A stretch of DNA of 64,000 nt, taken from contig NC_134027.1 of assembly GCF_964204645.1 (NCBI RefSeq), forward strand, positions 21,352,560 to 21,416,559, read 5' to 3'. Shown piece after piece: positions 7,381-55,481 of this stretch (position 1 is its first letter; each line of letters starts with the position of its first letter). Both the position numbers and the translations under genes were made by a program. The notes under the pieces were generated by a model, which worked only from the letters and a program-made list of their open reading frames with translations, was not told the origin of the DNA and ran no database searches. Source of the stretch: Tubulanus polymorphus (lineage: Eukaryota > Animalia > Nemertea).

Positions 7381-7404
7381 AATAACCGGTACTATGGGTT
7401 ATAA

Positions 7405-14800: not shown

Positions 14801-15776
14801 TAAATCTAACTCATACAATTATTCAATGTTAAAATATGAATTATTTCACTCACACTTTAGTCACACTTTTTATGTTTAAAAATAAGAATCTAAATATAAA
14901 TATAAATATTCAATGTTTCAAATATGAATTATTTCACTCACACTTTTTATGTTTAAAAATCAAGAATCTAACGTATATAAATATAAATATTCAATGTTTT
15001 AAATATGAATTATTTCACTCACACTTTTTATGTTTAAAAATTGATTTTTTATTATTCGAAATCTATATTTGATCTTATTTTTCTAGATTATAATGCTAAC
15101 ACTTTACTCACACTTTTAAAAATATGAAATTATTAGAGTATATAGGAAAGTGTTGGTTCAGGTCAAAGGTTGAGAGGGCGAGTGAGTAGAAAATTAAAAT
15201 AAATTCGAGCGTGCGTACTATTTGCGAACCGGCATACTTCTAAAGTATCTAGATTTCCACCGGGCTCGGGTAAACTTTTGAAAGGCAGGGTATGCTGACG
15301 ATGAAATGTCTAATATCTGATCCTTAAAGTTCATTTTCGTAAGGAAATGTGTGAGGTGAAGCTAAACATATTATTTCATGTGAAGTAAGGACGATCACTT
15401 TTGAAGGTGTGACACAAATCACTTTTGAAATGTGTTTAATATGTCTGGTGTTTATTGAAAATGTCCCAGGCAAAGTTGCAATGTGTACGTATATGGTTTG
15501 CATTATCTGTTTTGCAGGTGCACCCTATGGGGAATTCAATCATACACATGTCAGTACGAAATACTGTTGAAAGACGTGTGTTATTACGGTAACACAACCG
15601 CTCAATGGCCCGGGTGTTGTTCGAAGCGCAGGACAATCTGCCAATCGTCTGGTAAATACACGTCAGTGTTCAATAGTGATGCATTTGCCGAATTCCAGAA
15701 AACGGCAGTTAAAGATCCTACGTGTAACTCTACCATGGAGGCAATAGTTAGGGCTTGGTTAGCCCTTTACGACTAA
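11890..15776 (+). CDS. Secreted SVWC (single von Willebrand factor C)/La1/Vago-like protein, copy A; exons 11890-11959, 12532-12655, 15518-15776 (150 aa)
   Basis: Signal peptide MYFAVLVCVLFAGVSEA; GT-AG introns in phases 1 and 2 give one continuous frame; Cys pattern GC...CEMCYC...CKTC...C...WPGCC...C. Confidence 0.82.
12125..12310 (-). mobile_element. tRNA-derived SINE in intron 1 of SVWC copy A
   Basis: Minus strand has A-box-like TAGTGGTATAAG and B-box-like GGCTCAAACCC, plus an A-rich end; absent from the paralogous introns of copies B and C. Confidence 0.6.
12780..13152. repeat. Unclassified interspersed repeat, second copy at about 58210-58581
   Basis: Shared sequence GTTGGTTCCGATTAATCCGATAAGTGATATCCCTCTGACTCCGG ... 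CCAGAGCTCAAGGCTG. Confidence 0.8.
13300..15219 (-). mobile_element. Degenerate Polinton/virus-like fragment related to 29994-33072, in intron 2 of SVWC copy A
   Basis: Very AT-rich; frameshifted homolog of the Zn-finger ORF (..KVHCYCGGKYLRSHKSKHYQTIKH, 14201-14800); further small ORFs downstream; ends at ...GCGTACT (AGTA on minus strand) where similarity to copy B resumes. Confidence 0.65.
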
Positions 15777-17804: not shown

Positions 17805-20490
17805 TTTAGGATAAGATAAAGATTTTATGTATTATTTGGATAGAATTATATATCAATTACAGGAAAGGAGGTGGACATTTAAATAAGGAAGAAACAGACA
17901 ACCTATTACGAATTGCATGCGGGATGCTACTCCAGATTTTGGGACAAGAGATACTTATAGAGAATGACCTATGGGTTGTGTGAAAATACGGTACATACAC
18001 GGTATATCGAGATCCCGTGCATTGCGTAGAATTCTTACTATCTCTCGTTTTTAAAAGACAATAAATGTATGGAGTTATCGGCACTAGATGACCAGTTGAC
18101 CAGTTTATACATAAAGAGCGCTGTAAGAAACTTATTAATATCAGTGAGGGTAAGAAATCTGCCAAGTTTAAACAGGGGGACCGTATGTGCAAGAAATGGG
18201 ACATTGAATACAACGCGAATTGCTCTCTTTTGGAGAATCATTATTCGATGGAGTCGAATAGGGTAGGTCCGTGTCCATACAATGTTGCAATAAAGGAAAT
18301 AAGGGAGTATAGGGGAGTTATATAAGGTAGGTAGAAAGCATCTCGGTAGAACTCTAGGGGCTTAATTGTACATCAAACCGATCGATTGCGAAACTTTATT
18401 AGAAATATAGTTATATGAGGAGACCATATAAGTAACTTGCTGTCAATTAACGCGCCTAAGAATCTCGAAGTATCGGCTCGTACAATAACCACATCGTCTA
18501 AAACTATATTCAAACCCTGGGGGATACGAACGTTACCAAAGATTATATAGGCCTAGCTTATTTTATCTATATCTAGGGGGAGTTTGTTTAATCTAAACCA
18601 AGAAGAGAGCCGCTTTAGTTCATTGTTAATTGTATTAATTGTGTTAATTGTATTCGCTATTGGGACTTTATTGCTGTAAAATATGGTAGTGTCATCTGCG
18701 AACAGGATGAAGTTCAAGAGTTGAGAGGTTTTAGTAATATCGTTGAGTAAGAATAGTAGAGGTCCGAGAATTGATCCTTGAGGTGCTCCATAATTTATAG
18801 ATTGTTTTGAAGAAAACGCACCGCTGTAAGAAACATACTGTGATCTATCTTTTAGATAGCAAGTGAACGAAGATTGAGGAACACTACGCGAACCAAGATT
18901 CTGTTATTTACTGGGAGTATGCCATGGTTGATTGTATCGAATGCTTTTGAAATGTCGATGAATATTCCACAATAACGTAACCATCTTCAGTTAATTTGGA
19001 AATTTGGTCAGTGAAGTCAAGAAGGCCAAGTTCTGTGGAGTAACTCTTCCTAAAGCCGTATTGCTTTGGTGATAATATATTGTGTTTATTGATAAATGAA
19101 ATAAGCCGGCTTGTAAGTTAGGCGCAGTATATTTGAAAAACAGGATAACATTGAAATCGGTCGATAATTCGATATATAATCCCCATAGAACCCTTCTTAA
19201 ATAGAGGAATTAATAAAGCAATTTCAAACTGAGTAGGGACAATACCTGTAACGTAAGGACGATTAAAAACGTGTTAGAGAGGAGACAATGATCATTGTGT
19301 TTTCAATAATCTTTGGTTTAATATCATCGGGTCCCGCCCCCTTATCGCCGTCCATACTACAAACAATGTTTAAGATTTCCGATTTATGATAAGTGAACGG
19401 CGAATATTGTCCTCAATCCTAGCGCCAAGGTACGCAGAAACCGTGACCGGTGTTGATGGTATAAATTAGCTGCAAGGTCAGGCCCAATGTTAACGAAAAA
19501 GGTTTTGAATGTATCAGCAACTTGATCAGTTGTCAGAAGAAGTCCATCGCGAGACTTAAATTGAGGGATAGACTGATCTTGGTTAGAAGTTCCTACTCCT
19601 ACTTCCTACTACTATTAAGTTTCCCAGGTTTTCCGTAGATCATTTTTAACTTAGAAAAGTGATTCAGAATAATACTTTGTTTCTGCAGTTTTAAGTGTGT
19701 GATTGAAATTGTTGCGATAAATGCGATATATTTCTCTGTCATCGGGTTTTTTAGTTTAAATAAATTTCCGATAGTATCTAGATTCAGTTTTAATAGATCT
19801 GAGAAGGCCGCTAGTCAGCCAAGGTTTACGAACTATTTGAACTGTTTGGTGCTGGACTGAAAATAATTCACCATATATGAATTTGTATCTACCAAAAAAA
19901 ACAATGCTTGATTAGGGGCAGGTTCAGTAAGAACGGGAAATAAATCTTCCATTAGTAGTCTGATTTTGAAGTCGCGAGTTTTAGCCTCAGTTATAAGTCG
20001 AGAGGAAATGAGAACTGTGTTTATGACCCGATCTCAGTACGGAACTGAGCTGACCGTGTATTTTCTGTATTGTGAACGCAGATTCGGCGCTTAGCCAGCC
20101 GCGTATTTACATCCTCGTAGTACAAAACACTAAACACTAATTACACTCCCCAATGTTGACACACTGGGTGACTACTATACTGGGCTTACTAAGTGCCGAA
20201 TTGCCGACTCTACGTGTGAACGTAACTGGCTGTGTAAGCGCCGTATTTTGGTGAATTCGGCACCGGCAAAGTACGGTACTTCGTAAGCGCCGAATCTAGT
20301 GTGAACGCGGCTTATGTATGGAATAGTGGATGACAAAGGTAGAAAAGTGATCGGAAATATCGATGGTCACAATACCTGAATGTGTTGAGTAATAATGAAT
20401 AACGTTAGAAATATGTGGTCAATGCAAGTGGCGGTATATGCAGTGACGCGGGTCGGTTTGGAGATGGGAGGATTAAGCGGAAAGGTCAAC
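17805..20490 (-). mobile_element. Degenerate CR1/L2-group LINE ORF2 (APE end, RT, C-terminus)
   Basis: Minus-strand motifs PTRVT..TCIDHI, SDHF, KPWLT, DISKAFDTI, QGSILGPLL, ILFADDT, LQKRAIRVV; many frameshifts; microsatellite tail at about 17805-17825. Confidence 0.88.
20012..20312. mobile_element. Harbinger-like MITE remnant inserted in the LINE (duplicate at 29860-33248, split by the palindrome)
   Basis: Right terminus ...CTAGTGTGAACGCGGC-TTA and internal GTGAAC repeats; interrupts the LINE frame; left end unclear. Confidence 0.5.
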
Positions 20491-23279
20491 ATATGGCCCA
20501 AGTCCGATATACGACATTAATTTATAGTGCAACGTGTAGAGATACCTTTTGGAGTAAATCGGGGAATAATGGGCAAGCTGAAATATAAAAGCGTAGTAAT
20601 ATGGAACTAAAAGAAGTTCCATGAAAATAGATCCTTGATTGGGGATCCATATTCTGCAGCTGATGCCACGCGACACCTTACATACTAGGGTGATGACTCT
20701 AAATGACAGTTGACAGGTGACACCCTACACACCAGTTAGGTGACGACTCCACAGGACGGTTGACAGATGACACCCTACACACCATTGGCGCAAGTCCAAT
20801 ATACGACATTATAGGGCAACACATCAGTGGAGACATACTAACGCGTTCCCAAATGTTTTGATACTTTCTCAGTTTGTATCAAAAATATTGCCAATTTCTG
20901 GTCCTTGAGTCCTGAAAAATGATAAATTTACAGCGCAAAATCGTACAAACGTGTCAATTATACTTCTAAACACTTTATTTGCGGACCACATTATGAATTG
21001 AGCGTGGGCCATAGAGCGCTATATCCGCCTGTGATCTCGACTTTCAATTTATTACGTAAGCTATTCGTGAACAAAATGCGGCCGGCGCACAATAGAAACT
21101 TCGCTCTATGTATTCTTTCATTACCGCCGACAAAGAGGACCGATATTTCGCAAATTGGATTCGGGAGGTTTAAACCTCCCAAGGTCAAATCACTAAAATT
21201 GTGACCTTCGTGGAGATTATCTAAAAAGCCGATGGTAATCAAATTTAGCAGAACTTTTTACCCAAACGTTCAATGGTTTGAAAATCTTTCAATGGCATTC
21301 CTAAGTATTTGATGAAAGTTGAGAAATCATAAGATATTCATATAACCATGGACTCTAAAACCTAAATCGTTTAAGAGTCCCTGGTATAAAAGAAAAAAAC
21401 TTTGCATAACGAATAAGCAAAAATTCGAATCTGAACCATCTGTTTGGAATTGATTCTTATGAAATGGAAACAAATGCGTGAGCACTACTCATTGATTCGT
21501 TCATTATTGTACAATATGTTTCATTTGTTGACCGTAAGACGTTGACATTATGTCAATTTCATTCAATTTACTTTGCGGCTTTACAACGGCTATTTCACTG
21601 GTTCTGCGTGATGAGATAATTCTGATTAAAGTTATTGTATTAATTTCTACATGTATATACGTAATGATACTCTTTCTGAATAAAAGATGCACGTTATTCG
21701 AATCCCCACCATTGTTCTCTACAATGTACGTTAATCAAACTCACGATAAAACCAGAGCCAAAACCATGGACTCAAAAACGAAGAATCCGTGGTCAAACAT
21801 ACAATTCTAATTTCCCCGTTAGTTCACTGATGCCGTCAGTTTCTATCGAATGCAAGGATTCTAGCCAATCAGAGAGGCGCATTTAAACATCCATTGGCAT
21901 GTAAGTTATAGTACAACTTAGACAATAATCAAGGTTCGAGCCAATGTCAGTAACTACAATATGTTCTTTCATCAAATATAAATAACTCAGCAGTAGTCAG
22001 TTAGTTGAGTTTGTTTGACTTGTTTTGTATTTCATCAATCAATCTATTTCATTCTATTTTAAAGTACAAACTAAACGCTTGAATTGCTTATAACACGACC
22101 AGGTATGAATTAGAATAGATTGGCTTAATATTTCGAATGCAAATTTGGCGATTAAGCAATCGGAAATTCGAAGTGCTTGAGAAATTTTTCAATACGCCCA
22201 TTACTTCGAATAGCGATAAGTTCATTGACACATGTGACCATTGTTTTGTTACTTTCGATAGCGATTCGAATAAGCTATGCGACAGCTAACGACAGCACAA
22301 TCGCAATATCAACAGAAGTTCATTTTATCCTACATGATGAGGCTAAATTCAGTGAAATCGATCGTGTTCTGAAATATATATTTTCCTGGATACATTTTGT
22401 TTATTGTAGCTATTCTATGCGGTTTTATACATTAACCTGCTATAACATATTGACCTTTTTCAAGAACCCAAAAATTACAATTTTCTGGGAATCTGTTTTT
22501 TTTTCAAAAACAACCCAAACCCGAAATTCTGTACAGTTAGTACGCAGCGTATATAATGTCGGATTAGAGAATATTGAAAAAACTTAGAAAAAGTTCAGTG
22601 AAGGAAAATAAGCTCAGCAGTGACAAATTGTCATTTCATCCCCTTCACGTGATTAATTGATGTCCAAATATGTTCTACCGTGAAAACTCTGCATTTAGCG
22701 TCAAACGAATTTTTGTATATGTATCTCAGGATGCATGCTCTTAAAAAAGGTAGCCTATTAGGAAAAAACTTACCCGGTAAAATCCTAATTTGTCCTAAAC
22801 GATATTCCAACTATTATTTTGTTAATTGTTCAACTATCATCACTAACTGGGTAAGTTAGTTGAACTTACATAAAGATATATCATTAGGGACACTTCAATT
22901 TCACACCATTCAATATCATAAGGGAACAAAATTCTTTGAAACTTGGTTAATGATTTGATTTGATTGGAACACTTTATTTTTCAAATATAATTTACAGCAT
23001 AGTGTACAAAGCATAATACAAAATACAGTAAATTAGACCTGGAGGGGCCTGTAGAAACTAAGGAATAGTTTGTATAAAACAGGTCCCTCAAAAGAGAAAA
23101 GAAAAAAAGAGAAATGCAATAAAGAAAATAATATGCTCACAGTCAACCCTTAACACACAAAATGCAATCAAAGTAAACTATGATAACAGCTTGATTAAGA
23201 TATAATCATTTAATAAGCCAGTTATTTTCTGAAATATTCCAAAAACAATAATTTTAGTTCGAATAACTGTATGATAAAA

Positions 23280-26150
23280 TCAAGCACAAAGTTGCTTTCT
23301 ATAATTTCTTAGGAACAGTTTAGAATTGTCCATGTTTTTTAGATTTTCACTGATGTTATTCCAAAGTAAAGGGCCGGATACTTTTACTGAAAATTTTCTT
23401 CTAAGAATATTGAAAGAAAGTGTTTGTAAATCTTGACGTCGCCGAGTATTGTGACTGTGGATTTGAAAATTTTGGTTCCAATAATTTTCGAATGATTTCG
23501 GTAATATGGAGTGGACAGATCTGTAGATAAAAGTACCTAGCTGAAGTTTATTAATATCTTTGAGATTGAGGATATTAAAAGCTTTGAATATAGGGTCAGT
23601 GTGCGCCAAATAATAGGAATTAGAAATTAGCCTGATAGCTCTTTTTTGCAATACAATTAATGGCTGAAGTTTATTTTCAAAATTTCGTCCCCAAACTAAG
23701 TTACAATACTGGAGGTAAGGATCAATAAGCGACAAATAAAGGGTACGAAGAGAACTCACTGGCAGCTTATATCTTACTCTATTTATTATACCAATGCTTC
23801 GAGAAACTTTTTTTTCAACTGATTTTATTTGATCGTCCCAGGTTAGATTCCTGTCAATAAAAACTCCAAGAAAATTTGTGACATTGACTTGTTTGATCTC
23901 TATATTGTTAATTGATATTCTAAAGTTATGTTTTACCGAATAGTTTACCGAACACCATAAATGACGTCTTCTTTACATTTAATGACAGCTTGTTTGTTTG
24001 AAACCAGGTATACAATTTTGATAATTCAATGTTTACTGTACGTACTAATCTGTCTAAATTAATGTCACTATAAAAGGCATTTGTGTCATCGGCAAACAAT
24101 ATAAGTTTTAACACATTAGAAAATTTAATACAGTCGTTTACATATAATAAAAAAAGCAAGGGACCTAAAATTGAGCCTTGGGGTACTCCAGTTTTAACGG
24201 TACATAACGAGGATTTATAATTTTGAATTTGAACAAATTGTTTTCTATTCTTCAAATAGTTTTCAAACCAGTTGTTAGAGATGCCTCTTATTCCATAAAA
24301 ACATAATTTTCTTAATAAGATTTCGTGATCAACGGTGTCAAAGGCTTTTGATAAATCTAAGAATACCCCAATAGTTGATTTGTTTTCTTCTAAATTTTGT
24401 GAAATTTCATCAGTTATCAATTTTAAGGCCATGGCAGTTGAATGGTTCTTTCGAAAGCCGAACTGGTTTGGTTGAATGATATGAAACTTGTTACAATATT
24501 CGGTTAATCGATTATACACTATCTTTTCGAGAATTTTAGAAAAGCAAGGCAGTACGGATATCGGTCTGTAATTATCAAAAGAGTCATTATTGCCAGCTTT
24601 ATAGAGTGGACGTATTCGCGCTACCTTCAGTTCAGCCGGCACTATACCGGAATTTAAGCTACAGTTAAATATATGAGTTAGCGGGTTTTTTACAGAATCA
24701 ATTATTTTCTTAACTACTTTTACAGAGAAACCATCAGCACCAGCGCCTTTGCTGGGTGAGAAATCATTTACAATCTGACTGATTTCCTCAGGGTGGGTCG
24801 GGAAAAAGAAAAAGTTTTCATTTACTGGATCTGTCAGATATTCACTGAAGTGGACACCTGTATCTGGTATTTGATTGGCTAGGTTGCTACCAATATTTAC
24901 AAAGAAAGAATTAAATTCATTAGCGATATTTTCATAGCCGTTTACAACGATACCGTTCCTTTTGAAAGAGCAAGGTAATCTACTCCGATCATTGGAAGAT
25001 TTTCCAATTAGACTGTTTAAGATATTCCATGATTTTTTCATATCGGATTTGGCTGTAAGTAATTTAGTCTCATAATACTTTTTCTCGGCATATTTGAGTG
25101 TACGAGACAAGGTACGTTTGTAATTCAAATAATTTTTCAAATGTGATCTATTACGCAAAGATTTTCTGTACGAGCGATTTTTGTGTTTAATACATTTCAA
25201 TAATCCAGATGATAACCACGGTTTATGTAATTTATTTTCGTTTATTTTACGGGGAGTTGAAAAAGGAAAACATTCATTATATAATTCCATGAATTTAGTG
25301 TTAAATGCGCTGTATGAGAGTTGCGGGTCTGCATTACTATAGATATCCGACCAATCAGTGGCCAGAAGAGCTCTATTGAATTTTGAAATGTTACGTTCAC
25401 AATAGTTTCTGTTCGAAGTCACCTCTTGGTCAATTTTGGGCTCAACGTGATTACAGACAGTAAAAATAGGAAAATGATCCGAAATATCGGTACAAATAGT
25501 ACCCGTACTAAACACATGGCGAATATCGTTACAAAAAATATTATCTATAAGCGTCGAGGATGTGGGAGTGATTCTTGTAGGTTTATCAACTAATGGAATG
25601 AACCCAAATGAAGTCATATTTTCTAAATAGTTATCAGTTGGTCTGTGGGCGTTAACTTGTAGTAAATCGATGTTGAAATCGCCCATAAGATAGCATACTT
25701 TGTCTTCTCTATTAAGTTTCACTAAAAGTGGAATTAATTCATTATTAAAGCCATTTATGCTTTGTCCGGGTGGTCGATAGATCAGACCAATTAATTTATT
25801 TTTTTCTTTTTCAAGAATCAATTCAATAAATAGACATTCAAAAGTATTTCTATCCTCGGATAGATCTGGTCTAAGTTTCACATTAAAACTTTCTTTGAAA
25901 AATAGGGCCAAACCTCCTCCCTTTTTCTACACTTAAAAACACTTTTCATACCTGGGAGATTATACAGCCTGCCATTATCATGAAGTTCGCTAGTCCAGGT
26001 TTCGGTTAACCTGAAAATAGAAAAGTCAGTTTTTAAATTGCTCAAAAAATATGAAAATGTATCAAAATTTCTGTTACAACTACGAATGTTTAAAGCACAG
26101 ATTGAAAAATGTTGCTTTTCAAACTCTACAGTAGAGTTTACATCAAAGTA
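23280..26150 (-). CDS. LINE ORF2: apurinic-like endonuclease plus reverse transcriptase (largest open piece 23926-25911; frameshifted)
   Basis: LNIRS, TETW, IYRPP, MGDFNIDL, PTR..TLIDNIF, SDHFPI, NYRPIS, DLSKAFDTV, GVPQGSILGP, LFADDT. Confidence 0.92.
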
Positions 26151-26299
26151 TTGACATTTGTTATTATTAAAGATGTCGATGATGAATAAGTATAGGGTAG
26201 ATAATACTCGTTAATAGGTAGCATTATTAGACTGATGTTATCGGTAAATCATCCGGGACTGAAATTCTGTCCTTTTTGGCCATGTGAACAGTTGGGCTA

Positions 26300-27738
26300 A
26301 TATCGGATGATGATGTCTGACTTCTGGTTCGTTTTTTATTCTGATCCGGTGTTAATGCACGAAGAAAGACTTGTGTAAGTTCTTTGGCACCATCGATTCC
26401 ATTAGGATTCCTGACCTATCAGTTGAATCAAATAACGACTGGTTAACTGAAAAATTTGGTTGGAATACCAAATCATTGTCTATATATAGTTCAAATGATT
26501 TTCACTGTCACATAGCTTTCGAAGATAGTTATTGATCTTTGAGGAAGTGTCATTGTAGGTTAGCGCGGTCTTACTTTTTCCTTTACGCGGTAGTATACTA
26601 GATACATTAATTTGAGCGCTGGGAAATGTATTTCGAAGGATATTAATCATTTTGACATATCCAGGATTGTTTGGTCATGATCGTCTTTGTTTCGAGTCAT
26701 GTCGTTGGTCCCTAGATGGCAGATTATCGATTTTATTTTCGCATTTTCAATAGACGGGTCCACTTTCTGGAGAAGTTTATTTACATCATGGGCCGTTGCA
26801 CCCGAAACGCTGCACACGTGAACGCTTTCCGGAATATCTGTAAACATCAGGCGAGAGCAGTTCGAGTCACCCATAATAATATGTTTCGGGGGCACAATTG
26901 TCGAGCTAGCGGTGCGGCTCTCTGCAGGTGACATGTCAGTGACGGTAGACTGAGTATGAGTAGGAGTTTTAACTGTGGAATGTGATTTGTCCTCACATGA
27001 TTGATGATCAGTTATGTCGTCGTCAAAATTTAGTCTTTTTTCCAACCCCTGTAATATCGGACATTCTGATTTTTTATGCCCTTCCTTACGGCAGTAGAAA
27101 CATAAAACGCCAGATGGACAATTGGCTGCTAGATGGTCTGGAGATTTACATTTAAAACAGAGTTTGCGAGTACGCAAGAGACAACGATAATACTGGTGAT
27201 CCGTTTCACCGCAATACACACACTGCGTTTTATTATTATCGCAGTAAAGTCGGACTTCAAATCTTCCAAATTTTGAATTAACTGGAATTATACTTTTCAC
27301 TTTAAGCAATTTAGCATAAATAGAGCCATTCAAAATATCGGTGTCTTTTATTTTCCCTCTTCTGATACTCCCATTTATTACCTCACCGTATGTCGATAAT
27401 TGGGAGGCAATGAACGCATCTGATAATTAAACTGGTGCATCTTTAATTGTAACGTTCGTAACATCTTGTACATCGTCAGCTTTATCAACTTTTAACGTGC
27501 GGTCTCTTATTTTCGGTGGATTTTTTATGAAATCCTCAACTGCACTCGTGTCCTTGAACGTAATTCTACACTCACCAGTTTTTGTGATTTGAATCGCACG
27601 CACTCGAACTGATTTAGATCCCAGGGCTGATAGGATATCACTTTCCGTAATCCTTCCACCATAACAAACGACCGTGAGAGGTCTTTTTAGATCCATGTTT
27701 AAACTTGCGGCTAACTGAGAATTGAGGTAAAAATCCAA
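26300..27738 (-). CDS. LINE ORF1 (frameshifted): RRM-like N-terminus, three CCHC zinc knuckles, SGNH/GDSL esterase-like domain
   Basis: CVYCGETDHQYYRC, CFKCKSPDHLAANC, CFYCRKEGHKKSEC, followed in frame by IMGDSN...VSGAT...HLGTND. Confidence 0.82.
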
Positions 27739-27773
27739 AAAACCATATCAGTGACGGAGAAGCGACTCCAACA

Positions 27774-29734: not shown

Positions 29735-30393
29735 TTAATATGCAAACCTTTGGAAATTATGAATAGAAATGAAGAAATTGTTTATTCTTCTATTAGTAGT
29801 CTGGTTTTGAAGTCGCGAGTTTTAGCCTCAGTTATAAGTCGAGAGGAAATGACGCTTTTATGAAAACTGTGTTTACGACCCGATCTCAGTACGGAACTGA
29901 ACTGACCGTGAATTTTCTGTATTGTGAACGCAGATTCGGCGCTTAGCTAGCCGCGTATTTACATCCTCGTAGTACAAAACACTAAACACTAATAGTAAAA
30001 GGGGTTTAGTTGTTCTAGATCAAAGGTCGAACGGTCGAGCTCATAAAAATGAAAAACATGAAAATAATAACAATTTCTACTTGAATTAGTAGCGAAACTC
30101 ATATAAATGAACATTATTTACATGAATTTCATATATTTTAAAATCATTTATATGTTAATTACAAAAGTGTTGGTAAAGTGTGAGTAATAATTCATATTTT
30201 AACAGATTTCGAGTAAAAATATAAGTAAAATAAATGGATAACTAATAGAGTATAAAAGTGTGAGTGAAATAGTTTATATTTTAAACATATTTCAATATTT
30301 ATATTTGTATGAGTTAGATTTTTAAACATTAAAAGTGTGTGTAAAGTGTGATTGAAATAATTCATATTTAAATCATTGAATATTTATATTTGA

Positions 30394-31041
30394 ATGAGTT
30401 TTAATAAAAGTTTTGTTATTAAAATGAAGAAAGAAGAAGAACCCAACTTTAAAATCGAAATCAATGAAACCAATAAATCATTTTCACAGTTTAACATTAA
30501 AAATTATATTTCAGCAACAAATTTAGTGTCCGCAAGGTATTGTAAAATTGATAATATTACTATGATTAATCAAATATTATCAAATGAAACATATTTAATT
30601 ACTGAACTAGTAGATACTTTTGATAATGGAATCAAAAATCCTAAAATATTCAATACAGTTTTGAATTTTAAAGGAACTTAAAATGAAAACATAATAAATA
30701 TTCTTAAAACTCCTTTCAATGAAAGAAATGATGATATAATACTTTCTAAAGATTACAATGATTTTATTAACTTAAGAATTGAAAAAAGACAATTATATTA
30801 TTTCAATTTTGATAATAAACAAATTATCTATAATGAAATTTCATCAAATATTGGAATTCAATGTGAATCAGTTAATAATAATTCTTATAAAGATATCGCA
30901 ATTCAATGTGATTTAGAAAATGAATTCAAAAGATTTAATCCTAATGAAAAAATTCATTGTTATTGCGAAGGTAGATATTCAAAATCACATAAATCAAAGC
31001 ATTATGAAACAATTAAACATAAAAACTGGCGTAAAGAGTAA
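30394..31041 (+). pseudogene. Left-arm copy of the 215-aa Zn-finger ORF with an in-frame stop at 30679-30681
   Basis: Colinear with 32025-32672; TTA changed to TAA, frame continues to ...KHKNWRKE*. Confidence 0.85.
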
Positions 31042-31113
31042 CAATTCTACATAAAAAATAAATTAAATAGTCAAATAATTATTGAATTGAGTTAAATGAT
31101 TTAAATATCTAAT

Positions 31114-31951
31114 AGACAGTTAAAATGATAAATTGTTTGACAGTTGGAATGGTAAATTGTTTGACAGTTGAAATGATAAATTGTTTGACAGTTGAAATGA
31201 TAAATTGTTTGACAGTTGAAATGATAAATTGTTTGACAGTTGAAATGATAAATTGTTTGACAGTTGAAATGATAAATTGTTTGGCAGTTGAAATGATAAA
31301 TTGTTTGACAGTTGAAATGATAAATTGTTTGACAGTTGAAATGATAAATTGTTTGACAGTTGAAATGATAAATTGTTTGACAGTTGAAATGATAAATTGT
31401 TTGACAGTTGGAATGATAAATTGTTTGACAGTTGAAATGATAAATTGTTTGACAGTTGGAATGATAAATTGTTTGACAGTTGAAATGATAAATTGTTTGA
31501 CAGTTGAAATGTAAAATTGTTTGACTGTTAAAATGATAAATTGTTTGACAGTTGAAATGATAAATTGTTTGACAGTTGAAATGATAAATTGTTTTCAACT
31601 GTCATTTCAACTGTCAAACAATTTATCATTTCAACTGTCAAACAAATTATCATTTCAACTGTCAAACAATTTATCATTTTAACAGTCAAACAATTTATCA
31701 TTTCAACTGTCAAACAATTTATCATTTCAACTGTCAAACAATTTATCATTTCAACTGCCAAACAATTTATCATTTCAACTGTCAAACAATTTATCATTTC
31801 AACTGTCAAACAATTTATCATTTCAAATGTCAAACAATTTATCATTTCAACTGTCAAACAATTTATCATTTCAACTGTCAAACAATTTATCATTTTAACA
31901 GTCAAACAATTTACCATTCCAACTGTCAAACAATTTATCATTTTAACTGTC
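31114..31951. repeat. 24-bp tandem array (GACAGTTGAAATGATAAATTGTTT) that switches orientation at about 31592
   Basis: About 20 forward units followed by about 15 reverse-complement units; forms the centre of the palindrome. Confidence 0.95.
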
Positions 31952-32024
31952 TATTAGATATTTAAATCATTTAACTCAATTCAATAATTATTTGACTATT
32001 TAATTTATTTTTAATGTAGAATTG

Positions 32025-32672
32025 TTACTCTTTACGCCAGTTTTTATGTTTAATTGTTTCATAATGCTTTGATTTATGTGATTTTGAATATCTACCTCCG
32101 CAATAACAATGAATTTTTTCATTAGGATTAAATCTTTTGAATTCATTTTCTAAATCACATTGAATTGCGATATTTTTATAAGAATTATTATTAACTGATT
32201 CACATTGAATTCCAATATTTGATGAATTTTCATTATAGATAATTTGTTTATTATCAAAATTGAAATAATATAATTGTCTTTTTTCAATTCTTAAGTTAAT
32301 CAAATCATTGTAATCTTTAGAAAGTATTATATCATCATTTCTTTCATTGAAAGGAGTTTTAAGAATATTTATTATGTTTTCATCTAAAGTTCCTTTAAAA
32401 TTTAAAACTGTATTGAATATTTTAGGATTTTTGATTTCATTATCAAAAGTATCTACTAGTTCAGTAATTAAATATGTTTCATTTGATAATATTTGATTAA
32501 TCATAGTAATATTATCAATTTTATAATACCTTGCGGACACTAAATTTGTTGCTGAAATATAATTTTTAATGTTAAACTGTGAAAATGATTTATTGGTTTC
32601 ATTGATTTCGATTTTAAAGTTGGGTTCTTCTTCTTTCTTCATTTTAATAACAAAACTTTTATTAAAACTCAT
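32025..32672 (-). CDS. 215-aa Asn/Lys/Ile-rich virus-like protein with a C-terminal C2H2-type zinc finger
   Basis: Intact ORF ending KIHCYCGGRYSKSHKSKHYETIKH; the motif is conserved in the diverged copy at 14201-14470. Confidence 0.7.
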   Translation of the reverse strand: MSFNKSFVIKMKKEEEPNFKIEINETNKSFSQFNIKNYISATNLVSARYYKIDNITMINQILSNETYLITELVDTFDNEIKNPKIFNTVLNFKGTLDENIINILKTPFNERNDDIILSKDYNDLINLRIEKRQLYYFNFDNKQIIYNENSSNIGIQCESVNNNSYKNIAIQCDLENEFKRFNPNEKIHCYCGGRYSKSHKSKHYETIKHKNWRKE

Positions 32673-33247
32673 TCAAATATAAATATGCAATGATTTAAAT
32701 ATGAATTATTTCAATCACACTTTACTGACACTTTTAATGTTTAAAATCTAACTCATACAAATATAAATATTGAAATATGTTTAAAATATAAACTATTTCA
32801 CTCACACTTTACTCACACTTTTATACTCTTTTAGTTATCCATTTATTTTACTTATATTTTTACTCAAAATCTGTTAAAATATGAATTATTACTCACACTT
32901 TTGTAATTAACATATAAATGATTTTAAAATATATGAAATTCATGTAAATAATGTTCATTTATATGAGTTTCGCTACTAATTCAAGTAGAAATTGTTATTA
33001 TTTTCATGTTTTTCATTTTTTATGAGCTCGACCGTTCGACCTTTGATCTAGAACAACTAAACCCCTATTACTACTAATTACACTCCCTTCTATTGACACA
33101 CTAGTGACTACTATACTGGGCTTACTAAGTGCCGAATTGCCGACTCTACGTGTGAACATAACTGGCTGTGTAATCGCCGTATTTTGTGAATTTGGCACCA
33201 GCGAAGTACGGTACTTCGTAAGCGCCGAATCTAGTGTGAACGCGGCT

Positions 33248-33590
33248 TATGTATGGAATAGTGGATGACAAAGGTATAAAAGTGATCGGAAATATCGGTG
33301 GTCACAATACCTGAACGTGTTGAGTAATAATGAATAACGTTAGAAATATGTGGTCAATGCAAGTGGCGGTATATGCAGTGACACGGGTCGGTTTGGAGAT
33401 GGGAGGATTAAGCGAAAAGGTCAACATATTATTAAGGAAAGCCTCGGTAGCTGCATTATTATTAACTTTAGTGATATCGATGTTAAAGTCACCTAGTATG
33501 TGAACGTTGTCTTTTGGTAATTTAGGCGTTGTCCATTGCATTGCATTGTCCAATCTAACATCGCGTCGTCAAATTCTTCAATATGTCTGA
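33248..33590 (-). mobile_element. Duplicated piece of the 17805-20490 LINE (APE domain); its other part is at about 29790-29850
   Basis: Near-identical to 20312-20490; encodes HILGDFNIDI...KPTRVTAYTATCIDHI. Confidence 0.8.
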
Positions 33591-34027: not shown

Positions 34028-35059
34028 CTACGCTCGTTTTCCTAATCGGCCGCAGCTCAAAACCCAGACAAGGGTTTTTCCAAAACCTCTCCGGATACAT
34101 AAATATACGAATAAATTGATCATAGAATTTACGGCGTGTAAAAATTGACCCGAAGGATACGGTCGATATTTCCTGCCCTCATTTGCTGGTAAAACCGCGG
34201 ACAAAAATGTATTAAGTACATCCATCACATATTCAACCATAAATATCACATTTAAAACAAGTATCGTAAAAGTAATCCGACGACCTTGTTAACTATTTGT
34301 GGAACTTTCATCTTCGTCTTTTTGTTGAAGTTTCTGGCGTAGACGAGCCGCCTCCAGCACTAACATCGACATGTGAACGTTACACGCTAAAACAATAAAA
34401 CCCGGGATAAACTTAACCACAACTTTACCGAATAAAAAATCGTAATACATTGCGTATTGTTTATTGAGAAGCAGTAACTTTCTGTGACCGATATACATAC
34501 ACGGGTGATCGGGATTGACTACGTACATCTCTTTATACCATATCGTCGGTATATCAAAAATTAATGTTGCAACCCAAGTCGCAACAGATATACGAAACGC
34601 ATTCTGAATTGTACAAATTCTTCTGGCAGACAACGGGCACTTAATGGCCAGATAGCGATCAATGCTAAACGCAAAAAGCAGCCACCGACTCGTAGTCGTG
34701 GTCATCTGGAATATGGCATCTATATAAAGATAAATATGGTGGAAGTACTCTTGATAAGTAAGATTAAAGCGTATGGATTCAAGAGGGTAGCGCTTGGAAA
34801 GCATCATTAACTCACGTCCGAACAGCCCGGTTAAACAGTTGACGGTATCGGCTACAGCGAGTGTCTCCAAATATAAAACACTGCTTCCCTTATGTTGCAT
34901 TAGACGAAGAACTATGAATGCGAGGCAGTTGGAGACGACGCCAATGGAGTAAAGTATGGCACGGGCTAATGTCATTACGGTATCGTACGTGTAAGTGCCT
35001 GGACCATCACAGAAATTGCCACAGCAAATATCCGTTTGGTTTGTTACCAAACTGTACAT
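34028..35059 (-). pseudogene. GPCR paralog 3, full length, with a single in-frame stop (AAA>TAA) at 34289-34291
   Basis: ORFs 34289..35074 and 34028..34249 are in the same frame; SSTNS*QGR versus SSTNSKQGR in the paralogs. Confidence 0.88.
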
Positions 35060-35249
35060 TCTTACGAACCACATCTAACGAAATGAAACAGTGAAACTCG
35101 CATAACAGTGACGCACTTGCAGTGTATAATCATTATTCTCTACCCACCCGTATCAATTTTGCCGCACGTTCTCTATACGCCACAAACGGTTACTATTACG
35201 ATAAACGCAGTGCAAAGTCAAAGGATATATAATTCTAGAGATAGCTAGA

Positions 35250-37576: not shown

Positions 37577-37654
37577 CCATAATATGGTGGCTGATTAGGG
37601 CCAAGTTAAAAAAAAAAAATTTCGTGCAATATACCATGCAAAAAATATATTGCT

Positions 37655-38425
37655 TCGTTTCTGCGTCCGTTTCTGCGCGGCGCAAAAACGAAATTTACCG
37701 CGCTAAAACGCGCCAAAACGAGCGCAGAAACGAAATTTCGTTTTAGCGCCCGTTTTGGCGCGTTTCTGCGCGGTAATTTCTCGTTTTTGCGCCGCGCAAA
37801 AACGAAGTTCGTTTCTGCGTCCGTTTTTGCGGGGCGCCAAAACGAAATTTACCGCGCAGAAACGAACCTTCGTTTTAGCGCCCGTTTTGGCGCGTTTTAG
37901 CGCGGTGATTTCTCGTTTTTGCGCCCCGCAAAAACGAACTTCGTTTCTGCGTCCGTTTTTGCGGGGCGCCAAAACGAAATTTACCGCGCAGAAACGCGCC
38001 AAAACGAGCGCAGAAACGAACCTTCGTTTTAGCGCCCGTTTTGGCGCGTTTTAGCGCGGTGATTTCTCGTTTTTGCGCCCCGCAAAAACGAACTTCGTTT
38101 CTGCGTCCGTTTTTGCGGGGCGCCAAAACGAAATTTACCGCGCAGAAACGCGCCAAAACGAGCGCAGAAACGAACCTTCGTTTTAGCGCCCGTTTTGGCG
38201 CGTTTTAGCGCGGTGATTTCTCGTTTTTGCGCCCCGCAAAAACGAAGTTCGTTTCTGCGTCCGTTTTTGCGGGGCGCCAAAACAAAATTTACTGCGCAGA
38301 AACGCGCCAAAACGAGCGCAGAAACGAACCTTCGTTTTAGCGCCCGCTTTGGCGCGTTTTAGCGCGGTGATTTCTCGTTTTTGCGCCCCGCAAAAACGAA
38401 CTTCGTTTCTTCGTTCATGCGCGGT
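37655..38425. repeat. 154-bp GC-rich tandem repeat in the left arm
   Basis: Near-identical translated ORFs offset by 154 bp (37875 and 38029). Confidence 0.88.
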
Positions 38426-39209
38426 AATTTTGGTCGGATGGTGGCGCCAGGGTTCATCTCGTGATACTAATTACGGCCTTAAAACGTTGTATTATTATAC
38501 CAATTATTTTCTAATTAATTTAATTTTCAGAGTTACGTTTATACGCAATAAAACTTCCTTTATCGGTGATTTTCTGATTTTTTACGAAAGCCAGTAGCAC
38601 TGCCTTCACTGCGATCGATAGAAAACGAATATCTTCTAGTCCTCGAAACCCTCTTCCCGATGATTTTAAAGAACACCCTTCTTTTACAGAAACATGACAC
38701 TTCTTTAGATGAGAATAGAAGGGCCCAGACACTATGATGCCAGAGTTAATCGTTTAATTTGAAAATAAATCGAGTTGAACCATTCTGTTTCCAAAAGCAC
38801 GCAACCATGAATTAGATCTTCGAAAAAATAAAAACTCAAGGGAGTTCATAACTCGATGTGCACTGGGCATCAATATCGGCGTTTAGATAGACCTAACAAA
38901 ATTTTGAATTATATGGCGTTTATTGTAATTAGACAAATTTCATGATATATTTTCTATTTAATAATTTTTTCGTCATTAATGGGCTTACTGATCAATTCAA
39001 TGTTTTTCACGCCGTCAATAAACTTTCAATTTAGTTTTCTTGTTTTTCCACGATTTCGGGAAGTGGGGGCTAGTTAGTCAAGTAAGTGAATTAGTGCCTT
39101 GGGCTCTAAAATAGGCTACGTTTTAGGATGAAGTGTTGAACTTTAGAGATGGGCCCCGAACGTGGTGCCGTTGTGACCTAGAATGCACGGCTCGGGACTG
39201 CACCACGTG

Positions 39210-39695
39210 GCAAAAATGGACGCAGAAACGAAGTTCGTTTTTGCGGGGCGCAAAAACGAGAAATCACCGCGCTAAAACGCGCCAAAACGGGCGCTAAAAC
39301 GAAGGTTCGTTTCTGCGCTCGTTTTGGCGCGTTTCTGCGCGGTAAATTTCGTTTTTGCGCGGCGCAAAAACGGACGCAGAAACGAAGTTCGTTTTTGCGG
39401 GGCGCAAAAACGAGAAATCACCGCGCTAAAACGCGCCAAAACGGGCGCTAAAACGAAAGTTCGTTTCTGCGCTCGTTTTGGCGCGTTTCTGCGCGGTAAA
39501 TTTCGTTTTTGCGCCCCGCAAAAACGGACGCAGAAACGAACTTCGTTTTTGCGCGGCGCAAAAACGAGAAATCACCGCGCTAAAACGCGCCAAAACGGGT
39601 GCTAAAACGAAATTTCGTTTCTGCGCTCGTTTTGGCGCGTTTTAGCGCGGTAAATTTCGTTTTTGCGCCGCGCAGAAACGGACGCAGAAACGATG
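39210..39695. repeat. Inverted copy of the 154-bp repeat in the right arm
   Basis: Reverse complement of the left-arm units. Confidence 0.88.
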
Positions 39696-42397
39696 CAATA
39701 TATTTTTTGCATGGTATATTCCACGAATTTTTTTTTTTTTAACTTGGCCCTAATCAGCCACCATACCATAAAGATAAAGATAAGTCGTTTTCTTATTCAA
39801 CCATTCAGAAAAGTGTCATGCCTAATTATCTGTTGACCAAGTAGCCAATGCCATGCACGTTGAGTTATTTTCTAAAATCCTAATCCTTGTCAAAGGCCAA
39901 GGTCGCTGTGGAGCTATTTCCGGGTTTGATTTCTGTTGAGATTCTCATTTCGAAGCGTTTTCTCTTTTATTTTTCGTGCAAATGTGGTGTTAAAAATTAA
40001 AAAAACTACCAACCGCATCTGAAGAGAATATGTCAGAGGAATATTTTCATTGTTATAATAAAAATAAAGACACCTTCCGCATCTCCAAAAAAAATTCAAA
40101 CAGATATTTTTATTTCTACTTTTTTTTAAAAGGACATAAAAATAAAAACCACCCGCCCTCGTCATGGTAAAAAACAAAAGTGTGATTAGAAACAAGTCAT
40201 CTTTTTTGGCCTAGTGTACTGTTTGTTGGTTGGCCATTGCAGGGATGATATAATGCATATCTCATCCGCTGGTTGACGGTCGACTGGTGACATATTGCAC
40301 TGTTGTCACCAAGTAATGTACAAGGTGACAGAGACGATAGAGTGCATAGACCTACCATCCGCTGGTTGACGGTCGACGGACGACACGTCGCAATGTTGTC
40401 GAGAATTTATGTACAAGGATCGTGGGTTGACTGGTAGACGGGTGACCACAAGTTACAAACAATCAAGAGAAGGAAATCAACAACGTATCAATGAATAAGA
40501 TTTTATTAACGAAGTTATCAGACACAATAAAAGTTAGTTCGATGTTCGGATATTCGGCTATGCACAAGTCCATTAGATGGTCAAACACCCCAGTAGTGTC
40601 CAGGAATTTCGCGGTATAGGTGTCCTTCTTCATTGCGACTATTGCGTCGCATCAGGCGCCAATGCCTCCGATGCCGGTTTATACAAAAATATGTCGTATC
40701 GCGTTGCGCATTTTGCGGTATATTTACCTAATCCCACACTATCTTCTGCCAGTAGTTCGAAACTGTGGTCAACATGATAATGTGGATAGCTTTGATTGAT
40801 TACGATCGATGTAAAATGTAAAAGAACATGTAATTAATTGGAAGTTGGCATAGCGTACCTATGATTTGTTGAGCTAGAGAGCCTTTTGTGTGTCGCTGTA
40901 TTTGGCGACTGTCGACTTAAGGGCATGGTAAGTAGCATATAGTCCTTGGAATGCGATCTCTAAAAGATTTGTAGGGTTTTTATTATGTGTTTGGTCACGT
41001 GGTCTGTTTGGTATATAGGGTTAATAGACCGTTAATAGTTAATATGTGTGTGGGTAGACACGTCGACACTTTGACTTATCGAATGTTAATGACTGGCGAT
41101 GTAAATGTGTCGACATGTAAACTTTCTTTGCAATTGCAATTAGTTTATTGCTCCACAAAAGTTTATATTTGCACAGAGCACAAAAAACAGATTCATACAT
41201 GATACACGTTTTTTCATGCAGTTTACAGAATTCATACAAACACAGTTTAAATGAGAAGAAATGCATGAATACTTACTTATCAATCAATTAACAGTCAATT
41301 TATAGTTGAAGGCGGACATTGAACATTACATATTTCGTATAAGTTAAAGAAACTTTGACCCTAGCTGTATAAAGCGAGACAGGTTACAGAGCTGTTTGCC
41401 CTTAGAATTTAATAATTGTATCAATTTGAAAGCACTTGGTCTTATTCTTAAGTATGGTTTAATAAACCGGGTGCAAAGATTCTGAAGGGAAGGGCATTCT
41501 AGAACAAAATGGTACTCAGGCTAAGTCTACACTCGAGGAGTTTTCTGTTACCTCTCTCAAAACAAAAAATATAGCTTTATTAGCGTGCGAAGCTATAGAC
41601 TTAATACATGTCGATAGGCTTCCATTATAGTAGAAAATGATACCTAAGTATCCGAAACTGGAGACTAATTCTATTTTACTTCCATTTATAAAAAAAACTC
41701 TGGAGAGTTCCGACATTTCCTCTTTTGAAAGATTATTGCCTTAGTTTTTTCCAGGTTGATGTCGAGTTTCCACAGCTGATGATACTCAGATTTTATCGAT
41801 TGTATATTGTATATAAGCTTAGGGCAGATTCTGCTAGAATAACGGCATCATCTGCATATAACAATAATAGGAGTCTGAAACAAACATCTAAACTTTCTTG
41901 GTCCCAAAAAATCTTATACCGTCACACTGACTTTCAATTAGAAACCATTCCATGTCAAGTATATTGAAAAAAGTATAGGGGAGAGGTTCTCACCTTGTCT
42001 CAATCCTTTAAAACTCTCAAAGTACTCCGAGTTGACACCGTTTACTTGAATACATGATTTTGCATCTTGATAGATATTATAAATTACTCGTAATATTTTT
42101 CCAGTTATACCAGAGTGCTTCACGCCAAATTGAATCGAATGCCTTTCGATAATCAATGAAGATACAGAATAACTTCTTATTGTTTGCTAGAAATAATTCA
42201 ATAAATGAATTCAAAGTGAAGATATGGTCTTATATGGAATGCGTCTTCCTGAAGCCTGCTTGGTTTTTCAGTAAAAGATCATTGGTTTCTAGGTATTCCG
42301 TCAGACGATCATTTATCAGACTAGTACAAAGTTTCCCCAGACAGCTAAGGAGGGTGATCCCTCGATAGTTGTCTGGGTCTTTGGCATCGCCTTTTTC

Positions 42398-44847: not shown

Positions 44848-45891
44848 CTACGCTCGTTTTCCTAATCGGCCGCAGCTCAAAAACCAGACAAGCGTTTCTC
44901 CAAAACCTCTCCGGATACATAAGTACACGAATAAATTGATCATAGAATTTACGGCATGTAAAAACTGACCCGAATGATACGGTCGATATTTCTCGCCCTC
45001 GTCTGCGGATAAAACCGCCGGCAAAAATGTGTTCAGCACAGCCATCATATATTCAACCATAAAAATCACATTTAAAACCAGTATCGTAAGAGTTATTTGG
45101 CGACCTTGTTTACTATTAGTGGAACTTGCATCTTCCTCTATTTGTTGAAGTTTCTGGCGCATACGAGCCGCTACGAGCACTAATATGAACATATGAACGT
45201 TACACGCCAAAACAATTAGACCCGGGATAAACTTAAGCACAACTTTACCGAATACAAAATCGTAATACATCGCGTATTGTTTATTGACAAGCAGCAAATC
45301 TATCTGCCGGATATACGAACACGGATGATCGGGCATTGCTACGTACGTCCCTTTATCCCAAATCGTTGGTATATCAAAAATAAAAGTTGCAACCCAAGTC
45401 GCAACAGATATACGAAACGCATTTTGAATAGTACAAATTCTTCTGGCAGACAGCGGGTATCTTATGGCCACATAGCGATCAATACTTAACGCGTAAAGCA
45501 GCCACGGACTCGTAGTCGTGGTCATCTGGAATATTACATCTATATAAAGATATATATGGCGGAAATATTGTTGATATATTTCATCGTACCGAATAAATTC
45601 AAATGGGTAGCTCCTCGCAATGACTATAAACTCGCGTCCGAACAGCCCCGTTAAACAGTTGACAGTATCGGCTGCAGCGAGTGCCTCTAAATATAAAACA
45701 CTGCTTCCTTCAAGTTTCATCAGACGAAGAACTATGAATGCGAGGCTATTGGAAACGATACCAATGGCGTAAAGTATGCTACGAGCTAACGTCATTATGG
45801 TACCGTACGTGTAAGTTCCTGAACCATCACAGAAATTGCCGCAACAAATAACCGTTTGGTTTGTTACCGATATTGCTGTCGAACTGTGCAT
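44848..45891 (-). CDS. Intronless class A GPCR paralog 4 (intact, 347 aa)
   Basis: 7 TM segments; LAAAD, SIDRYVAIRYPL, NSMINLFVY; colinear with copy 1. Confidence 0.92.
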   Translation of the reverse strand: MHSSTAISVTNQTVICCGNFCDGSGTYTYGTIMTLARSILYAIGIVSNSLAFIVLRLMKLEGSSVLYLEALAAADTVNCLTGLFGREFIVIARSYPFEFIRYDEIYQQYFRHIYLYIDVIFQMTTTTSPWLLYALSIDRYVAIRYPLSARRICTIQNAFRISVATWVATFIFDIPTIWDKGTYVAMPDHPCSYIRQIDLLLVNKQYAMYYDFVFGKVVLKFIPGLIVLACNVHMFILVLVAARMRQKLQQIEEDASSTNSKQGRQITLTILVLNVIFMVEYMMAVLNTFLPAVLSADEGEKYRPYHSGQFLHAVNSMINLFVYLCIRRGFGETLVWFLSCGRLGKRA

Positions 45892-48506
45892 TATGTATTT
45901 CGAATCTATGTCGCGGCAACAATTGAATCCCAGGCACTAATTCGCACATACGTAGGATTTTCCTTCGCGCGACTTCCATATGATTGCTGCCGGTTCTGCA
46001 TTTGTTCTGCTTCTTCGTGATACCCTCCGGAGTCTATCAAAATTCCCCAGTTGCCGTCAAATTTTTACCACACAGTGTCTTCGCCACAGATGAAGCCTTT
46101 ACTAACCCGGTGCAGGGTTCCAGCTTATGATCGATTTAGAAACTCATCGCAGTATATCTTATACTCTCCGCCTTTCAACATTACACCGGTGCAATGCAGA
46201 ATTGTTTCAGAGAGAAATACTCGAAATAACAAAATGGTCGCATTCGAAACAATATCTGATTTAGTTTATGTACTGATTATCTTCCGTTAATTCGAATAAA
46301 TAAAGATACGTAGATACTAAAAAGAATACAATTGCAGTGCTGCAATAAAAAGATAATTCCGGTGCAAAGGTGATGAATTATTTGATGAAAAGGCTGCTCC
46401 AGCTGCTTGACGTTTTTTGATAAAGTGTACTAAAATGCGTGATATGCACAATGTCACGTACATAACTAATATCGTAATTTAACAAATAATTACAAACTAC
46501 GCCATACAATACTGACTAGATCAACCGACCCGGCTGGTTTGACCTTGTTTTGAAATTAAGCAACTATATCAAAAAATTCTGCACGGTAAAGCGCCCTGCT
46601 GTTGGATACTTTGTTAATCATTTATTAAAGAAAAATAGGCAGGCATTTTTCTTTACATTTTTTTCCGTGAAAAGTATGAAATTTGACATTGTTCCATCGG
46701 CCTCTATTCATTCTTTTTTTTTTAGAAATTATCACTGAAAGATTTTTGAAATGAAAAAATATATTAAGCGATGGATATGGCTGGATAAGTTCTGTTTGCC
46801 AAATACCATACTAGTAGGCCTGTCGGCCTAGTTTAGTTGCCAGATGTTGGATCATTCCTACCTTCTTGTTTTTTGCCAAATTTCGAGGATACGTCAATTA
46901 TTATTCTAAATAGCTAGGAAGGATATATCAAAGAAACTCCATAGAATGGAAAGATTCAGTCAGATGGAAATCCAGATCATCACAAAAATAGGACGTGCTA
47001 TGAATTACAAATCCAAAAAGTAAATGAAAATGTATTCTCCAGATGGCACTTTGATCATCTTTTTGAGGATGATTTTTGAAGAGAAAAGAATAATTTTCAT
47101 CCGCTTACAAAAATGGAGTAACCCTCAGTAGACGTGGTAGACCTGGATTAACGACCTTGAAGAATGGCTAGTAGTCAACCGCCGAAACACGAAGATTTAC
47201 AAAATTGTTTTTCCTCAATTATGAGTGTGAGGCTTTATTTATTTAATATCAGTAGTACCATTTCAACAATAGTCTAACGCTTAATTTCATTTTGAGTTGA
47301 TATTTATTTTGCTTTTATACACTTGAAAGTGAGTTTTGGTTTATTATTTCACCACGTCCCGTCGTGGTACTGTTTTGCTGCGAAAACAATTTAGTATAGT
47401 ATAGTAGCATTTATTTGGTTGTTTACGATTATAACGTTATTGATATTACACAATATACAGCGAAAAAATGTAACAAGAAAATTTGATGATATTTGAATTG
47501 GAGAACCTACATTCAATGAAAATGACGCTATTTCACTACGTATCATCGCCCATATCGCTACCACTTAATTCACGTGACATGAGTCTATACATTATCAATT
47601 TGAAATTTTTATCTAAATAGAACAATTTCGACACTCGGCCCGGTGGGCCATTAAGCAACCAGAAAGTTTACGGTTGACTGCCTTCTACAATATAGAAAGA
47701 AGTATGTTAGAATACATAAATATGTAACGGTTTTTATCGAATTTACTTTACACATAGAATCTATTTCCGTTTTTAAAAAATTTGATGTATATAATTTTCA
47801 TATTGCCGAGGATATTTTGACATCATCACGGATAATTTTTCAATTTTTTTGGGTAAGTTTTTAAAGGTAGGCTTAGTGATTTCTAAACAAATAGAGAATC
47901 CTTGTATGTTTTGTAAGCGGGACATTGAAAGTCATCATTCCCTCGAGTGACAAACTTCACAAATGCGCCGCACTTCTTTTAGATTGATAAATCTATCGGT
48001 TTCCAGTTTAAGTGGAAGTATACTAAAGCATATTTGAGCCAAATTTGAGCGTTCAAGTTCATTTATTTCATAGAAAAGAACGAACAACATAAAAATATTT
48101 ACAATTAGAATTTATAAGAGTGTGGTTTTTTTTATAAAATGTATGATTAAGATGCTAGAAAAAAAATGATGTTACGTACATAACAGGCGGGTTTTTTGGC
48201 GTGGCCTTACAGAGTACCTTAGAATATGATATGTGAGTAAATTCAAAAAGTATATATGGCTTTTTATGTAACCACTTTCTTAATATGCAATGTATTCTAT
48301 TATATACACGATAGAACGAACACTACGTAATATGACGTGTAGATCAGTACAGCGTTAGTCAGAGAGAAACTTTTCAATATACCTAATTTGCACAATAGTT
48401 GCATATATCCAAAGCTCACTCCTTGATTTGGTTTTCTTTGTAGCCCATAGGTCAGATCGAGATGGGTTTGGAAACTGAGAGAAAAATAACCAAACTGACG
48501 TGATAT

Positions 48507-54671: not shown

Positions 54672-55481
54672 ACGGGATATCGACAAATTCAAGTTCTTAA
54701 ATTACTCGTTTGATGGCGCTAGTCAGAACCGGAAATTGGAACCTAAATCCGCCATGTTCTAGTTCATTTGCAATAAAAATCTCTCGCTTCAAGTTTTAAG
54801 TTAGCGATATTTTACTTACTATACATAGGCACGCATAATCCTTTAAATATGATATCCTGAAAATGTGTAGAATTCGATAAAACCCCACTTCGAACGCTAA
54901 AGATCACTAGAAATGTAAAAAAAAACTACCAAAAATAACAAATTTAGCGATGACGCTCGAACCAGCTAACGGAAGTAATGACTGGTGCCGGGTGTCATCA
55001 CTTTGTTGGTGAGTTCAAGACTCTTAAGGTAAATTAATTGCAGGCTACATTGATAAATGTAAAATAATATTATGAAATAAAATTGATTTTAGAAAGAATA
55101 AACTCGTAGATTCATAATAGAAATATGAAAAGTACCAGCAATCAAAATTGGGTCGTCAAGTGCTGCCACCATGTGACACCTGACAACCAGTCTTTGCATC
55201 GTCAACAGTTGCAAAATGTTTTTTGATAATTTTAGGACATTTATAGTGATTTCTAGCCTTTGCAGTGAGGTTTCATCATATCCAACGTAGCGGTAGGATA
55301 TCATATTTAAAGGATTACGCGTGACAATGTATAGTAAGTAGAATATCGCTCATTGAAAAGTTGAAGCGAGAGATTTTCATCGCAAATGAACTAGAGCATG
55401 GTGGATTTAGGTTCCAATTTCCGGTTCTGACTAGCACCATCAAATGAGTAATTCAAGTACTTGAATTTGTCGATATCCCGT
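54672..55481. mobile_element. MITE with about 130-bp TIRs (related fragment at about 7880-7910)
   Basis: ACGGGATATCGACAAATTCAAG...CTCTCGCTTCAA inverted against TTGAAGCGAGAG...CTTGAATTTGTCGATATCCCGT. Confidence 0.8.

Follow-up and report, generated by a model that had tools for sequence, protein, structure and literature searches.

The locus lies in a 64,000-nucleotide stretch of Tubulanus polymorphus DNA (NC_134027.1, positions 21,352,560 to 21,416,559 of the forward strand), which we call the window and whose numbering is used throughout. At 29994-33072 the window holds a sequence of 3,079 bp that forms an inverted repeat over its whole length; the left arm measures 1,601 bp and the right arm 1,471 bp, with 7 nt between them. 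Each arm runs from the end through subterminal 11-bp and 87-bp repeats and an inward-reading ORF to a 24-bp tandem array. The features of the element, and the two other parts of the window to which it was compared, are the following:

29994-33072, no strand: the whole palindromic element; GC of the unique arm 21%, against 36% for the window
29988-29993, no strand: left target site duplication (TSD), ACTAAT
33073-33078, no strand: right TSD, ACTAAT
29994-30004, plus strand: left end, starting AGT, one base different from the right end
33062-33072, minus strand: right end, reading AGTAATAGGGG on the minus strand
30017-30111, plus strand: subterminal stretch common to many further copies, with strand switches in reads; depth at 30038-30095 about 140 times that of low-copy DNA
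30160-30400, plus strand: subterminal repeats of 11 bp and ~87 bp, with their mirror image at about 32666-32900; location of the reciprocal 11-bp indels
30424-31041, plus strand: left-arm copy of the ORF, with a premature stop at 30679-30681
31115-31594, plus strand: left 24-bp tandem array, 20 units
31593-31616, no strand: centre, with the orientation switch, a 12-bp direct duplication and no unique spacer
31602-31951, minus strand: right 24-bp tandem array, inverted, 14.6 units
32025-32642, minus strand: right-arm copy of the ORF, open, 205 aa, with a C-terminal CxC..H..H zinc-finger-like module
19945-20494, plus strand: host repeat without an insertion, in which ACTAAT occurs once, at 20136-20141; the element sits in another copy
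13304-15216, minus strand: truncated non-palindromic relative, which shares the subterminal repeats and has a decayed version of the ORF, both ends missing in the window

The surrounding DNA also holds, in a cluster, single-exon GPCR genes of the rhodopsin family that have Srw-like matches (3261-4382, 34289-35074 and 44848-45936, with a partial copy near 9033-10299) and, on the minus strand at 23280-27747, a LINE-type retrotransposon with a zinc-knuckle ORF and an endonuclease/RT ORF in pieces. Further inverted-repeat pairs were found at 2011-2919 and 6894-7799 (914 bp, 95%), adjoining 33-bp arrays at 153-1931 and 5785-6699, and at 54669-54916 and 55237-55484 (248 bp, 85%).

The palindrome ends precisely at the 6-bp duplication, beyond which the flanks rejoin into the host repeat: 29786-29993 and 33073-33429 align to one intact copy of it at 91% and 95%, respectively. 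Given the composition of the flanks, an exact 6-mer match would arise by chance with a probability of about 4e-4, and the duplication length of 6 bp is known from a single insertion site. The original prediction had described the whole element as an inverted repeat with a 6-bp TSD and no unique spacer, as is indeed found at 29994-33072, and had proposed that it inserted as one unit, pointing to an uninserted site elsewhere. Insertion as a single unit is supported by the uninterrupted host repeat at 19945-20494, where ACTAAT occurs once, but this sequence is a paralogue within the host repeat and not the empty allele of the insertion site. The termini, AGTAAAAGGGG on the left and CCCCTATTACT on the right, are of the AGT..ACT type, and they start AGTAA, unlike the canonical (AGT)2.

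In their unique parts, the two arms share 1,093 identical positions and are 98.6% alike, with 16 substitutions over about 1,110 sites, two 1-bp indels and two reciprocal 11-bp indels that fall in the subterminal repeat. Together with the stop codon and the unequal array copy number, these are the differences between arms that had been predicted, and they hold. The centre of the palindrome, at the 12-bp direct duplication, has the form of an imperfect hairpin turn. The variant units of the two arrays agree at positions 1 and 2 only, and beyond these there is no mirror order: one variant occupies position 8 on the left and 9 on the right, and a second is found at position 18 on the left and at positions 3 and 12 on the right. 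This different order indicates that the arrays have been reshuffled since the common origin of the arms.

Copy number was estimated from a 2026 raw WGS run under the species label (X7), of which about 12% was read, relative to a low-copy depth of about 15 defined by five bins picked as the lowest of the flank. The ORF has a depth of 364 (about 24-fold), this type of end 461 (about 30-fold) and the subterminal stretch at 30038-30095 a depth of 2,139, so that copies elsewhere, as foreseen by the original prediction, are evident from the reads and the element is shown to belong to a multi-copy repeat family in the species. The ratio of end type to ORF, 461:364 or about 1.3:1, points weakly to one ORF per end rather than one per two ends. 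Just before the array, depth drops to 65-92 (4-6-fold), from which it follows that most ORF-bearing arms continue otherwise than this one. Out of 8,165 aligned reads, 215 are at least 99% like the left arm and 6,004 are below 95%; with a likeness of 98.6%, the arms are far closer to each other than to the family, which means that they were equalised inside the element. Within the stretch at 30017-30111, reads switch strand at 30089/30094 (118 reads), 30107 (50) and 30111 (85), and about 1,600 reads enter it from other outer sequence, the loose ends listed for them holding the same terminal motif. The strand switches at 30089-30111 suggest that other subfamilies include short relatives that are palindromic, or hairpins in the subterminal region.

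The same reads bear on whether the palindrome is an assembly artefact, that is, a fold-back read or a mis-join at an ordinary insertion. Among the arm differences listed, at least 9 of the 16 show the right-arm letter in at least 93% of X7 reads, and at least two more show it in the majority, which speaks for an artefact. This asymmetry amounts to at most 11 versus 5, however, which is not significant (p = 0.21), and X7 departs from the window at several sites of the single-copy flank too, making the absence of the insertion from X7 plausible. Because most left-arm letters are missing from X7, the X7 individual is probably without this insertion, and the locus and its centre are thus known from the assembly alone. 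The 16 substitutions and four indels between the arms and the reshuffled order of the arrays speak against an artefact, as does a palindrome that halts exactly at a 6-bp duplication with flanks that rejoin the host repeat, and the collapse of overlaps should not be able to join arrays that face in opposite directions. We consider an artefact very improbable.

The ORF is the only one outside the array. Eight of the nine codons that differ between its two copies alter the residue, which would fit neutral decay of the arms. Compared with the copy in the relative, dN/dS is 0.58 (Fisher p = 0.045; 177 in-frame codons, leaving out stops and gaps), which indicates weak purifying selection, so that the ORF was probably a real gene. 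An exhaustive phmmer search with the 205-aa protein returned 16 proteins with E values up to 0.001 (best 8.6e-9), all with their best stretches within query residues 115-205 and 13 of them beginning at residue 160 or later; the N-terminal 150 aa are mostly without relatives. A repeated CxC-G-x-Y..H..H module is common to the 16; the GIY-YIG Pfam domain occurs in three, no name is attached to any of the 10 that were looked up, and no Polinton label to any of the 16, which match mostly the C-terminal module. A link of the zinc finger to the packaging ATPases of Polintons was not confirmed, as 0 of the 16 carry such a Pfam domain. Other searches with the ORF matched 0 Pfam families and 0 PDB sequences, gave matches at chance level in PHROGs (E values of 0.012 and 0.16) and scored nothing when word-based, and a single-sequence structure model was uninformative (pLDDT 30). 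Comparison with the Atlas reached at most 0.88 for the whole protein and at most 0.94 for the C-terminal 50 aa, the latter to small hypothetical proteins, some of them viral, which constitutes a weak lead. Modules of the CxC..H..H type are often found in Polinton-like viruses and in large DNA viruses. The product is likely a small nucleic-acid-binding accessory protein that came from the end of the parent element; it is not a mobility enzyme.

The relative at 13304-15216 places the arm in another context. Its segment 14190-15027 aligns to the arm on the minus strand with 79% DNA identity, and after the ORF there is no array but about 0.9 kb of different AT-rich DNA, which contains short ORFs and has about 5-fold depth. 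At its right edge, 224 reads run off into DNA resembling the element's subterminal stretch. The arm thus occurs in a longer element as well, with a different continuation, and the multi-copy DNA that follows it and the edge reads are what would be expected if the arm is one end of such an element. No Maverick core gene was found in the relative. At 15140-15216 the relative carries a diverged version of the element's subterminal stretch in inverted orientation, with a score that 0 of 1,000 shuffles reached; this is one arm of a subterminal hairpin absent from the palindromic element. The short AT-rich ORFs downstream of its ORF (13450-14190, minus strand) include a hydrophobic stretch with a charged tail, and an 81-aa ORF of this region had no match in Pfam, PHROG or viral contigs (0 of 38 candidates). 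Growth of the 24-bp array from the DNA downstream of the relative's ORF is not well supported as an origin: 11 of 1,000 shuffles equalled the score, and the best alignment lay off the array.

To which group of elements does the palindrome belong? Intact vertebrate Mavericks have 6-bp TSDs, (AGT)2//(ACT)2 or (AG)3//(CT)3 ends and TIRs that are 46-1,447 bp long (PMC8097293), and among the enzymes encoded by Mavericks are a protein-primed PolB and an integrase of the retroviral kind (PMC6431247). The element is similar to these Mavericks, or Polintons, in its 6-bp TSD, its AG..CT ends starting with AGT and its long inverted repeats. Polintons can also carry genes inside their TIRs, those of butterflies having TIRs of about 2 kb that hold genes in two copies (bioRxiv 10.1101/2025.02.07.637071). 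In contrast, it measures 3.1 kb, against 12.7-24.6 kb for Mavericks, its ends read AGTAA, and it is devoid of an internal unique region and of pPolB, integrase, ATPase, protease and capsid genes, the zinc-finger-like ORF being all it encodes, in agreement with the original prediction, which saw no pPolB, integrase or capsid gene in the window. It is not an autonomous Maverick, and it probably works like a non-autonomous one. A search for a parent or helper yielded 0 matches to the end pattern and to the array pattern in viral contigs, and 0 to the subterminal pattern in metagenomes, and 0 of 207 metagenome and 0 of 11 viral-contig candidates for the ORF were confirmed, although these viral and metagenome collections contain little animal DNA and their empty scans are not evidence of absence. 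Rfam gave 0 matches. As no parent with pPolB, integrase or capsid genes was found in the collections scanned, the proposed link to Polintons is one of end features only, namely the 6-bp TSD and the AGT..ACT ends.

Foldback elements typically have long TIRs that contain tandem arrays; FB of Drosophila and Galileo have long arms of this kind and target duplications of lengths other than 6 bp. The palindrome could accordingly be a foldback-type non-autonomous element of another cut-and-paste superfamily, with a transposase that duplicates 6 bp, and a second long-TIR element with arrays and a 6-bp duplication does exist in the window, at 37583-39765, and no Maverick core gene is linked to the palindrome. 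IS3EU/GingerRoot elements resemble it in duplicating 6 bp and in having long arms that contain tandem repeats, but they end in TA..TA, or sometimes TG..CA, and not in AG..CT (PMC10045372). Having an ORF in each arm sets the element apart from these as well as from FB and Galileo, and an arm so rich in AT, whose small zinc-finger ORF has no introns, would be more virus-like, so that we regard an origin of this type as unlikely. The element at 37583-39765 is 2,183 bp long, with 154-bp tandem arrays in both arms, TATGG..CCATA ends and the duplication CCATAA, and it fits a non-autonomous element of the IS3EU/GingerRoot type as defined in PMC10045372.

The explanation that we favour, with about an even chance of being right, is a non-autonomous element of the Maverick/Polinton type, a type suggested by the 6-bp duplication and the AGT..ACT ends, which likely arose by fold-back of the end of a longer element and was moved in trans. 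During protein-primed, strand-displacement copying, the polymerase would have switched to the displaced strand within the repeat array, and both ends of the resulting molecule would be usable. This palindromic molecule could then be copied by the pPolB of a helper and inserted by the helper's retroviral-type integrase with a 6-bp stagger; the arrays would go on slipping in later rounds, and after insertion the arms would decay separately. Hairpin or dimer derivatives of linear plasmids and snap-back defective genomes are comparable, the element being on this reading likewise a short derivative of one genome end formed by template switching. The protein-primed phage phi29 offers a further comparison, as it accumulates subgenomic DNAs of 1-8 kb through template switching by its polymerase (PMC4974454, citing Murthy et al. 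1998). All of these are free molecules, whereas the element is integrated with a target duplication and inherited.

The centre without a spacer is what a snap-back would leave, but the arrays are reshuffled and, as their variants are not mirror-ordered past units 1 and 2, they do not directly record the fold-back event. With the different order of variant units in the two arrays, a single fresh snap-back at this locus, as had originally been envisaged, is not supported. It is plausible that the fold-back took place earlier in the lineage, where it is indistinguishable from a deletion between long gene-bearing TIRs. In this alternative, the arms are the two long gene-bearing TIRs of a parent Maverick that lost its core, with both breakpoints in the arrays, and the derivative was mobilised in trans with no snap-back at all. 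It accounts for the palindromic shape nearly as well, and is compatible with the differing variant order, with vertebrate Maverick TIRs of up to 1,447 bp (PMC8097293) and with the gene-bearing TIRs of about 2 kb in butterfly polintons (bioRxiv 10.1101/2025.02.07.637071). However, the centre keeps no internal unique base, the relative goes from the ORF into other DNA without an array, and arms of 1.5-1.6 kb are above the vertebrate TIR range, so that this deletion seems to us rather unlikely, if less so than a foldback-type origin.

Repbase may list non-autonomous Polintons, and its entries could already include palindromic elements, as reportedly could the work of Kapitonov and Jurka of 2006. 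Literature searches, which extended to titles and the starts of abstracts, found no paper on fully palindromic Mavericks, and the available parts of PMC8504770, PMC5718144 and PMC5499653 contain nothing on them.

Beyond fold-back at the end of one element, we tentatively propose, as something possible but short of probable, that Mavericks spawn heritable snap-back defective genomes by template switching at arrays, and that these spread as helper-dependent satellites, with several sizes in this species, down to short hairpins, that share one common end. The copy described here adds a gene-bearing arm and a non-palindromic relative; a demonstrated helper would make the case strong. The protein-primed strand-displacement replication of Mavericks is mostly inferred from their gene content. 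Integrated full palindromes are a by-product that such a mechanism predicts and, if the interpretation is true, they would be evidence for it at the level of the genome and would show which minimal end sequences are recognised by the helper. They may also explain a class of long palindromes rich in AT that annotation pipelines either do not classify or remove as errors of assembly.
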